Positions 3,001 to 6,000 of a DNA stretch of 21,281 nt are shown piece after piece. A program made the position numbers. Source of the stretch: Planctomycetota bacterium (lineage in GTDB: Bacteria > Planctomycetota > GCA-002687715 > DRQF01); assembly GCA_027001995.1 (NCBI GenBank), contig JALTLO010000052.1, positions 1-21,281 on the forward strand, written 5' to 3'. Each line of letters begins with the position of its first letter. Position 1 is the first letter of the stretch.

Positions 3001-6000
3001 TGGAGGATACACATTGATGGAATCCACCCACGATCAATTTGATGAAGAAGAAGAAGTCGCAAGCCCGGTCGATATCTGGAGTTGGACAAGTACCAGCCCC
3101 GAAGCTTTGAATCTCAGTGAGGTTCTCGCGTTTCGTCGAACCGTTCTTTCTAACCCAACTGCTCGCCGAGAACTGACCAACAGACTCAGCGAAACCGATG
3201 GCCAAGAGGTCAACGGTGTCCAAGCTGGCATTGGCTGGTGGATCTGCAATGAATACCGCAGATCATTGGAGCATTTGGAAAAGGACCACAACGGCAAGGT
3301 GGCCACCTTTGCCTTTGCTGATTCCGCATGTTTCGCGGGTCACTTAGGTATCGACGGTGTCAACCCACGACCAAGTGTTGCAGCCGACCTGATCATGAAG
3401 TCCAACCCGACTCTTGCGGAAGAGAAGGTCTTGGTCATGCGTGCGCTTATCACCGCGGAAAAAACCGAAGAAGCTCGCAAATTCTTAGACAGCCAAAACG
3501 ACGAGTTTAGAGACTCAGCGGATGGTTTGTTCTTTGAAGGGCACTTGGCAGAACTTGATGGGGATTACAGCGCGGCAGACGCAGCCTATCAAAAGGTTCT
3601 CGAGATTGACGAAAACCACGCATTGACCTTGTTCCGTTTGGCTCGCTGGCACGATTTTTCTTGTGATGACGACTTGGCCATGCGTTGCTACACCAAACTC
3701 TCGAATTGCAAGCCACCTCATATCAACGCGCTCATCAACTTGGGCGTGCTCTATGAAGACCGTGATCAGTTCACCGAAGCCGCCCATTGCTACCGTCGTG
3801 TCTTGAGCATCTACCCGCAACACCCCCGTGCTGCTTTGTACTTGAAGGATGCCTTGGCGTCCCAATCCATGTACTACGATGAAGAACAAGAAGTTCGCCA
3901 AGACCGCAAGAACCAAATCCTTAAGATCCCTGTTTCCGACTTCGAGTTGTCAGTCCGGTCACGGAACTGCCTTGCGAAGATGAACATTGTGACCTTAGGT
4001 GACTTGGTTGACAAAACTGAAGTTGAGCTTCTTTCATACAAGAACTTCGGCGAAACAAGCTTGAGCGAGATCAAGCAAATCCTCGACATGAAGGGCTTGC
4101 GATTGGGCATGAGGCCGGACGAGGACTTGGTGCCGATGGGAGCCGGTGGTAGCGGCGTTGCTGCTAACCCGGCTCAAGCTGCGGCTCCGTCATTCTCCAT
4201 CGACCCCGATGACGAGCGCCTTAAGAAGTCGGTGAATGAATTAAACCTCAGTGTGCGCGCGCGCAAGTGCCTTTCTAACTTGGACATCAAGTTGATCGGC
4301 GACCTGATCGCTTACACCGCCGACGACCTTCTTGGCCAACGCAACTTCGGTGTCACCTCCCTCAAGGAGATCATCGAACAAGTTGAGCACATGGGATTGG
4401 CGATGCGCACGGTCGACCGTTAGGCTAAGTCCCCTGCAATCTATGATGAGGGCCCTGCTCAGTTCACTGAGTAGGGCCCTTTTCAATACGTGTGAATCGT
4501 TGAAGTTTGCGGTAAAGGGTTCTTCGATCTAACCCCAGGATTTCCGCTGCTGCTTTCTTGTTACCTGCGACGGCGCTCAAGACTCTACGGATGTGCCTCT
4601 CTTCTAGTTCAGCGATCGAGATCAAGCCAACTTCATCTTCTTTGATCTCTTTCTTCTGCCACAAGTCTTCGGGGAGGTCTTCTACGGCTAAGACCTTCCC
4701 ATCAGAAAGAGCCACGGCTCTTTCGATGGTGTTCTCTAACTCGCGGACATTTCCCGGCCATGAGTGGGCCAACAGCTTAGTGGCGATTCCCTTGGAGAAA
4801 ACTGGAGGGTCGATCCCAAGCCGTTTCGAAATCCTCTGATTGAATCTCTGGGCCAATGCCAGAATATCCCCCTGACGCTCCCGCAAGGCAGGCATGCGGA
4901 TCTTGATCACAGCAATGCGATAATAGAGATCTGTTCGGAAGCGATGCTCGTCGGCTTCTTGCTTGAGATTGCGATTAGTGGCGGCAATCACGCGGCAATC
5001 AATCGCGACTTCTTTGTCACCACCAACTGGGCGAATGGTCGATTCTTGAAGAGCCCTCAATAGTTTGGGCTGCAAACTCGCTGGCAATTCACCAATTTCA
5101 TCCAGAAAAAATGTGCCCCCATGAGCCAAAGAGAACAACCCTGCCCGGGTGGATTTCGCATCGGTGTAAGCCCCTTCCACATGCCCAAACAACTCGGACT
5201 CTGCCAGGCTTTCCGCTAAGGCCGCACAATTGACAGCGATAAACGGGCCATTTTTTCGTGGACTATGATCATGAAGATCGCGGGCCAATAGTTCCTTTCC
5301 CGTCCCCGTCTCCCCCTCTATCAGAACCGGAACATCGGAAGTGGCAGCCTTGGGAACCAAATCCAGAAGGCGCAACATGGGCGGGCTATTTCCTTCCAAG
5401 CGATACCCGACGCCGACTGGCTGAAGGTCATCAATCGTCTTGTTGAGTCGAGAAACTTCCGCGCTCAAATGAGCATGCTCCAAGGCTCGGTGAACGGCAA
5501 ACTCCAAGACATCCAACTCGATGGGTTTCGACAAGAAATCGTAGGCTCCAGCGCGAATCGCTTCCACCGCTAAATCCAAGGTGCCAAAGCCAGTCATAAC
5601 ATAACAATGACGGGGAGATCGGGAGCAATTTGATGAATGTGAGCACAAAGGTCGATCCCAGTCATTCCCGGCATTCGAATATCGGTCAAGACAACGTCCG
5701 GGGCTTGGTTGCGAATGACATCCAAGGCCGATTGGGGGTCGCACTCCCAAGTGACCTCAATTCCCAAAGGAGAGAGACCGGCATGAACGAGTTCGCACAT
5801 GGGAAGCTTGTCATCAATAACCAGGAGTTTGCCATCCATCTTATGATTCCTGCTTTCGTGGAAGGATTAAGGAAAAGCAAGCGCCTCCCAACCGAGAAAC
5901 TTCTGCACGAATTGAGCCACCATGATCTTTCACTATTCCGTGGACAATCGAGAGACCAAGCCCCGTTCCGGCCCCCTGCTCTTTGGTTGAGAAGAAAGGC

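Follow-up and report, generated by a model that had tools for sequence, protein, structure and literature searches.

Nearly every genome of the Planctomycetota encodes a protein in which a tetratricopeptide repeat (TPR) superhelix carries copies, most often two, of the C-terminal domain of the RNA polymerase α subunit (α-CTD). We consider it fairly probable that this protein is an RNA-polymerase-bound accessory subunit of the phylum that provides α-CTD function in trans. Sequence and published data establish the architecture of the protein, its distribution, co-changes in the α subunit (RpoA) and the essentiality of a counterpart. In the proposed mechanism, the last TPR repeats would clamp the dimer of RpoA N-terminal domains (NTDs), gripping both copies at the N-terminus, at the final NTD helix and where the linker begins. 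A helix would fix the first CTD (CTD1) beside the polymerase and leave the second (CTD2) on a flexible tether. The two CTDs would then take over part of the work that the native α-CTD does elsewhere, by contacting upstream DNA through R265, N294 and a new R267 or, alternatively, by contacting sigma, activators or NusA. With CTD function supplied in trans, the native CTD could drift and the gene would have become essential. The stronger form of this idea, in which the protein is an extra, essential and stably bound subunit that now performs the main work of the α tails, the native tails having decayed, seems to us plausible but not quite probable.

Architecture and distribution of the protein, and essentiality of a counterpart

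The gene lies at positions 3017–4423 on the forward strand of the window (the whole 21,281-nt stretch of planctomycete DNA that was analysed), and translation of the window gives a protein of 468 amino acids, P0001. We placed the start at the ATG at 3017 rather than at the TTG at 2984 because a Shine–Dalgarno-like GGAGGA occupies 3002–3007 on the same strand. Pfam searches detected RNA_pol_A_CTD in two stretches (E = 2.5e-41) and TPR_2, TPR_1 and TPR_8 above cut-off; with PF03118 the two CTDs scored 79.8 and 72.1 bits, against a curated cut-off of 23.8. The whole genome contains exactly three PF03118 matches, two in this frame and one in rpoA, which is separate and intact (346 amino acids) and sits between rpsD- and rplQ-like genes. 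The AlphaFold model of P0001 (147 sequences, mean pLDDT 91.2, pTM 0.71) has helical repeats at residues ~20–284, followed by a charged helix at 289–302 (3881–3922, +) that joins the TPR part to CTD1 and continues into it with high confidence. Together with structural matches, the model defines a TPR-like superhelix over residues ~19–287 (3071–3877, +). Fold searches with this part returned generic TPR superhelices over residues 19–287 (best Z 16.9, rmsd 4.5 over 212) and nothing more specific. CTD1 (residues 302–365; 3920–4111, +) and CTD2 (residues 400–465; 4214–4411, +) follow, and between them runs a flexible linker (4112–4213, +; pLDDT <50 at residues 378–393) of 19–49 amino acids in 61 orthologues. 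CTD1 matches solved α-CTDs (1coo, E = 1.6e-16; 1lb2, E = 5.7e-16; 3gfk, E = 4.8e-12); it is the better conserved copy and is present in every complete orthologue examined, while CTD2 is more divergent and is missing in one lineage. A genome-wide survey's note had described a TPR protein with two α-CTDs beside a normal rpoA, which the Pfam matches and the genome-wide PF03118 count bear out; its TPR range of 130–290 has to be extended to ~19–287. The first ~150 residues are absent in three of the 61 orthologues, and this form of ~300 amino acids without the N-terminal repeats was seen in three different families (loci L034, L059 and L091; families f5, f55 and f83).

The sample of 301 Planctomycetota genomes, each at least 90% complete, yielded a match at E <1e-26 in 299. 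Searching the five weakest genomes again with a family profile located the gene in three, as a frame split over contigs, a frame with an N gap and a short form at a contig end; no copy turned up in G006 or G105, whose assemblies are fragmented. Across 121 genomes, PF03118 matched three times in 103, twice in 5, once in 1 and four to six times in 12. The five genomes with two matches all belong to family f29 and have a frame of 376–407 amino acids that stops soon after CTD1. The near-universal orthologue claimed for the phylum is therefore confirmed, mostly as a single copy, but the CTD pair is not universal, as the one-CTD form of f29 accounts for 5 of the 121 genomes. Within f29 (L296–L300, L068 and L087) CTD2 was lost stepwise, with a decayed motif in two genomes and none in five. 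In one genome with 5% contamination (G034, contigs C343 and C26), rpoA is present twice, at 45% identity to the query.

Outside the phylum, the tandem-CTD protein was found in none of 201 genomes of Verrucomicrobiota, the phylum of Prosthecobacter fluviatilis. One match was found in 200 of these genomes (best E = 3.8e-21), and the 150 of the 200 matches that were listed span the CTD region only. Among 40 named genomes the tandem was present in three Planctomycetaceae and absent from the 37 of other lineages; none of this sampling outside the phylum was aimed at Chlamydiota or Omnitrophota. Twelve phage records matched, none over 80% coverage. Planctomycetota were the commonest phylum in all ten ESM Atlas clusters listed, and in a profile search of 1.84 billion proteins the matches were swamped by TPR proteins. 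A homologue labelled Deltaproteobacteria (P0025) was considered as a true outsider and rejected; it is 71.5% identical to the protein of a Planctomycetota genome, and mislabelling or recent transfer is its likely explanation.

The counterpart in Planctopirus limnophila, ADG66450.1 (451 amino acids, 1356 nt), is 36% identical to P0001 over 456 columns, and we equate it with Plim_0602 on the basis of labels, length and neighbours. In the portions of a TraDIS study available to us, Plim_0602 is part of the essential gene set (Fig. S3, under COG0202 and COG0457) with an insertion index of 7.38e-4, or 1/1355; the downstream neighbours Plim_0601 and Plim_0600 have indices of 0.140 and 0.145, and rpoA 0.0040 (PMC10632474). 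A dispensable gene of that length would be expected to receive approximately 190 insertions, and CTD2 alone about 26, so CTD2 appears to be required in P. limnophila too. We considered whether the essentiality could be a polar artefact, using the gene order of the sister species P. hydrillae: thiE on the opposite strand, an 852-amino-acid Clp ATPase, the gene, and two genes that match the non-essential tags. The Clp ATPase fits the insertion index of Plim_0603, 3/2558. With the gene downstream of the Clp ATPase and non-essential tags following it, polarity is an unlikely cause. The terms rpoA, TPR and tetratricopeptide are absent from the main text of the TraDIS study (PMC10632474), and Plim_0602 appeared in no main text among the full texts searched. 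A full-text literature search, whose scope largely left aside subscription papers and unseen supplements, returned no study of a protein with TPRs and two α-CTDs; the protein is not described in the parts available to us of PMC3444138, PMC2754498, PMC12283558 and PMC11958385, nor, by term count, in those of PMC12673574.

Co-changes in RpoA and a predicted complex with its N-terminal dimer

We compared the CTDs of the protein with those of RpoA using E. coli α numbering (P0001 position minus 49) and residue counts from 61 genome-derived orthologues. R265 is present in 61/61 in both CTD1 and CTD2 and N294 in 61/61 and 59/61, and G296, S299 and E302 are also kept in both copies. CTD1 retains N268 and the acidic positions 259 (D in 54, E in 7) and 261 (E in 53). 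Both copies have gained R267, and position 268 of CTD2 is K or R in 54/61. The position of K298 is T in 59/61 CTD1 and 57/61 CTD2 sequences, and position 297 of CTD1 is E in 55/61. The residues that the survey's note had called invariant largely are so in P0001 numbering (R314 61/61, N317 58, C318 57, G345 61 and S348 60 in CTD1; R414 61/61, G445 59 and S448 58 in CTD2), except for position 417, which is K in 33 orthologues and R in 21.

RpoA itself has changed in the same phylum. All 62 RpoA proteins of other phyla have K at position 298, whereas all 46 of planctomycetes have T (45) or V (1), so the loss of K298 is common to planctomycete RpoA, CTD1 and CTD2. This fits a derivation of the spare CTDs from the phylum's own rpoA. 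In a quick tree, with 64 of 104 branches open, CTD1 and CTD2 each formed one group (support 84 and 98), and a grouping of planctomycete CTDs against other phyla was compatible with this poorly resolved tree (p-AU 0.935). Mean identity across 28 matched genomes was 0.67 for CTD1, 0.53 for the RpoA CTD and 0.47 for CTD2. When RpoA pairs with 50–60% NTD identity were compared, CTD identity was 0.526 in planctomycetes (335 pairs), as against 0.661 in Verrucomicrobiota (479 pairs, a non-random sample from the 150 of 200 matches listed) and 0.64 in other phyla (35 pairs). These comparisons of CTD identity indicate that the native planctomycete RpoA CTD is under weaker constraint and suggest that CTD1 is held under normal α-CTD constraint. 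The RpoA linker has a median length of 47 residues in planctomycetes versus 41 and 39, and planctomycete-specific conserved residues occur at the two ends of the NTD (R2, R6, K237, N240 and G249). In some planctomycetes RpoA N294 is S or A, including L193 and L195, RpoA sequences from two of the genomes with the short form of the protein. The gene is not explained by a missing omega or RuvC, both being present in 5/5 genomes (omega above cut-off in four).

The basic RpoA residues and the invariant acidic residues of the TPR part led us to propose a docking site before modelling. We then predicted a complex of two RpoA NTDs (residues 1–252) with residues 18–368 of the protein, using custom alignments. 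The complex score was 0.70 (0.69, 0.70 and 0.72 in separate runs), and the best of three controls reached 0.02; in calibration the score mark was attained by 116 of the 157 solved pairs and by 2 of the 215 with mismatched partners, counts that hold only roughly for a job unlike the calibration. At least 70% of contacts were common to the runs, and partner pLDDT was at least 84. The confident interface consists mostly of TPR residues 202–293 (3620–3895, +), with none past 293, and includes F206, N241, D248, R271, D278, M285, D288 and E289 among the predicted docking-surface residues; on the RpoA side it involves residues 1–6, 10, 12, 203–204 and 226–252 of both copies. In the best predicted pairs, the start of the RpoA linker (243–245) rests on the groove residue N241, and the invariant acidic residues D278 and D248 would pair with K237 and with R236 and N240, respectively, on the basic, phylum-specific face of RpoA. 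Because the confident interface does not include CTD1, the score is not accounted for by similarity to full-length RpoA. These data predict that the TPR part, rather than a CTD, docks on the RpoA N-terminal dimer.

RpoA-NTD positions were called phylum-specific if at least 80% of the 29 planctomycetes and no more than 20% of the 62 outsiders had the conserved residue; the model saw none of the outsider sequences. Of the 252 NTD positions, 29 belong to the interface, and these include nine of the 11 phylum-specific ones (Fisher p = 5e-8, a value overstated by the kinship of the genomes and noisy outgroup ends). On the other side, 8 of 11 conserved polar or aromatic TPR positions lie inside the predicted interface, and three short orthologues retain its core residues; within residues 200–295 the conservation of interface residues was 0.60 versus 0.54 for the rest, which is non-significant (p = 0.11). 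The prediction left out β and β′, and in models of this kind surfaces may be drawn together by their conservation. The RpoA 203–204 loop, which belongs to the predicted interface, presumably lies near β/β′, so a clash with these subunits is possible. Fold and structure searches surfaced no solved TPR–α-NTD complex, and we know of none.

What the protein may contact, and competing readings

We infer binding to polymerase, contact with DNA and an effect on transcription from the findings above, and the least secure step of the mechanism is the target of the CTDs, because K298 is gone and because the α-CTD of Thermus does not bind DNA and works only as a protein tether, according to the available text of PMC5101437. 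In the E. coli α-CTD, R265 and N294 enter the minor groove and K291 and K298 contact phosphates (PMC7822876, available sections; the minor-groove role also in PMC5101437), and the UP element is bound by two α-CTDs as a head-to-tail dimer (PMC7822876). The survey's note had proposed UP-element-type DNA binding; the retention of R265, N294, G296, S299 and E302 speaks for it, but the T at position 298 and the E297 of CTD1 make such binding by CTD1 and CTD2 less secure than that note stated. The same retained residues, the R267 of both copies, the K or R at 268 of CTD2 and the resemblance of tandem CTDs to the head-to-tail dimer would suit a DNA-binding factor or decoy that stands free of the polymerase, mimicking the polymerase's CTD pair with its own two and holding another partner with the TPR part. 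We regard this as improbable, as the predicted TPR–RpoA interface has matching phylum-specific residues and CTD2 has been lost in five genomes and is visibly decayed in two relatives. This also bears on the note's wider claim of a core part of planctomycete gene expression that acts as a free-floating mimic, recruiter or competitor: the phylum-wide presence, the essential counterpart and the tie to transcription stand, but a free-floating mode is at odds with the predicted docking on RNA polymerase. The same predicted interface would also suit a protein that docks transiently on the α dimer, either as an assembly chaperone or as a regulator that restrains the native CTD through its grip on the linker and uses its own CTDs as activator decoys. 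Such an assembly factor would be essential as well; the predicted groove holds RpoA 243–252, the start of the linker, and α linkers shortened by three residues lower rRNA promoter activity in E. coli (PMC7822876, available sections). A chaperone, however, would have no need for a CTD better conserved than RpoA's own and leaves the relaxed native CTD unexplained, and a pure inhibitor fits poorly with an essential, near-universal single-copy gene; we therefore judge transient docking unlikely, if less so than the free-standing factor.

The gene neighbourhood raises a different reading, in which the protein works with RuvAB to process Holliday junctions or to clear replication–transcription conflicts and its helix–hairpin–helix domains act on branched DNA. 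In 31 of 61 loci, belonging to 25 of 49 families, a ruvA in the same orientation starts within 400 nt downstream. The genes ruvA, ruvB and ruvC are dispensable in E. coli. In P. limnophila all three (Plim_2446, Plim_2430 and Plim_2444) belong to the essential set in Fig. S3, as far as the study was available (PMC10632474). In the other 30 loci, however, ruvA is not next, and queH, a spoIID-like gene or tgt often takes its place, so that proximity to ruvA looks like a matter of shared location in a housekeeping cluster; a divergent ffh lies upstream in 17/61. In the window a block of ~10.4 kb (4464–14769) separates the gene from ruvA, although the two are 143 nt apart in a genome of the same family, and the P. 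limnophila tags Plim_0602 and Plim_2446 lie far from each other. Moreover, the co-changes found are in RpoA, RuvA having been outside the co-change comparison. We consider a RuvAB partner the least probable of these readings, slightly below the free-standing factor, and continue to favour a polymerase-bound accessory subunit.

The block encodes a histidine kinase, a sigma-54 response regulator, SulP, DabA and two antiporter-like subunits, that is, a DAB-type inorganic carbon transporter; DabA occurs in 1/61 loci. The receiver domain of the response regulator (4464–5839, −) is split over the overlapping frames 5594–5839 and 4464–5750, which suggests either a frameshift or an error in the assembly. 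At 4449–4483, 25 nt past the stop codon and between convergent genes, lies an inverted repeat of 14 bp that encloses a 4-nt loop and is accompanied by a short run of T; it looks like a terminator, was read by eye and is absent from the consensus scan listing. As a terminator it would make the gene separate from ruvA in this window. A promoter scan of the + strand gave nothing above chance, and a tRNA-Thr is directly upstream in only 2/60 loci, with none within the window. Convergent on ruvA is an ABC cluster at 15469–20331 (−) comprising an ATPase, a permease, ABC_transp_aux/DUF7088 and DUF4340; DUF4340 is near the gene in four related loci too.

Significance and comparison with known systems

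The core polymerase is considered almost the same in all bacteria. If the proposal is true, a whole phylum transcribes with an extra essential part, its co-adaptation visible in RpoA; in the stronger form of the proposal, the phylum would read upstream promoter DNA and activators in a geometry unlike that of all studied bacteria. The protein is real, unstudied and essential in one species, and the mechanism suggested for it draws on structure prediction and sequence co-change; it would assign a function to an essential gene that the label RNA polymerase alpha has concealed. Strong inducible promoters of E. coli gave no expression in P. limnophila, according to the available text of PMC11958385, and we speculate that the protein may bear on this failure. 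P. limnophila is harmless and genetically tractable, which makes the hypothesis directly testable. What would be new is the predicted mechanism, which has no known member, as the domains and the kind of polymerase-bound factor are already known. The literature search found no paper on a factor that docks on the α-NTD dimer to add CTDs in trans, and to our knowledge no such factor has been described.

The closest relative by domain is the RpoA CTD itself (PF03118; E. coli 248–329; 1COO, 1LB2), with which P0001 shares the fold, R265, N268 (in CTD1), N294, G296, S299 and E302. P0001 differs in carrying two copies on a TPR scaffold without an α-NTD, in having T for K298, E297 in CTD1, R267 in both copies and K or R for N268 in CTD2. 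No Pfam match to the α-NTD family was found in P0001, the N-terminal part of which is TPR-like, and the NCBIfam rpoA models match the CTD alone, below cut-off (153 versus 302 and 134 versus 228 bits). The place in the rpsD–rpoA–rplQ operon is held by the separate rpoA, and the studied gene lies near ffh and often ruvA. Relatives are named in databases "RNA polymerase subunit alpha" or by their domain content. A second gene labelled as an α subunit also occurs in the duplicated rpoA (α1 and α2) of Francisella, presumably the organism of PDB 6WMP, but both of those are whole α subunits, whereas P0001 has no NTD.

The α-CTD has been reused outside RpoA in BREX PglW, in a β′ fusion (PRK14906) and in a stand-alone protein (PRK07758), which match P0001 weakly over the CTD alone, far below cut-off, and none of which has a TPR scaffold. 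The PglW model scored 22 bits over the CTD against a cut-off of 990, and PglW is a protein of ~1400 amino acids with kinase and nuclease-like domains; no BREX-type family was detected in the 17 other window ORFs scanned. No family in NCBIfam or PADLOC fits P0001. A Bacteroidales genome has two small stand-alone α-CTD frames of 137 and 147 amino acids (G332:C137:8143–8334 and C65:26457–26633), and a Coriobacteriaceae genome has an α-CTD within a 1482-amino-acid frame that is probably a β′ fusion (G327:C349:8077–8229).

RbpA, GcrA and the Firmicutes δ and ε subunits are lineage-specific factors that bind RNA polymerase. Among the Pfam, NCBIfam and fold-search results, P0001 had no sequence or fold relation to CarD-like factors. 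Nevertheless, like these factors and CarD (PMC5101437, available text), it is limited to a lineage, is predicted to bind polymerase and would place a second domain near promoter DNA. CarD binds the β lobe (PMC5101437), whereas P0001 is predicted to sit on the α-NTD dimer and to bring duplicated domains of the polymerase itself.
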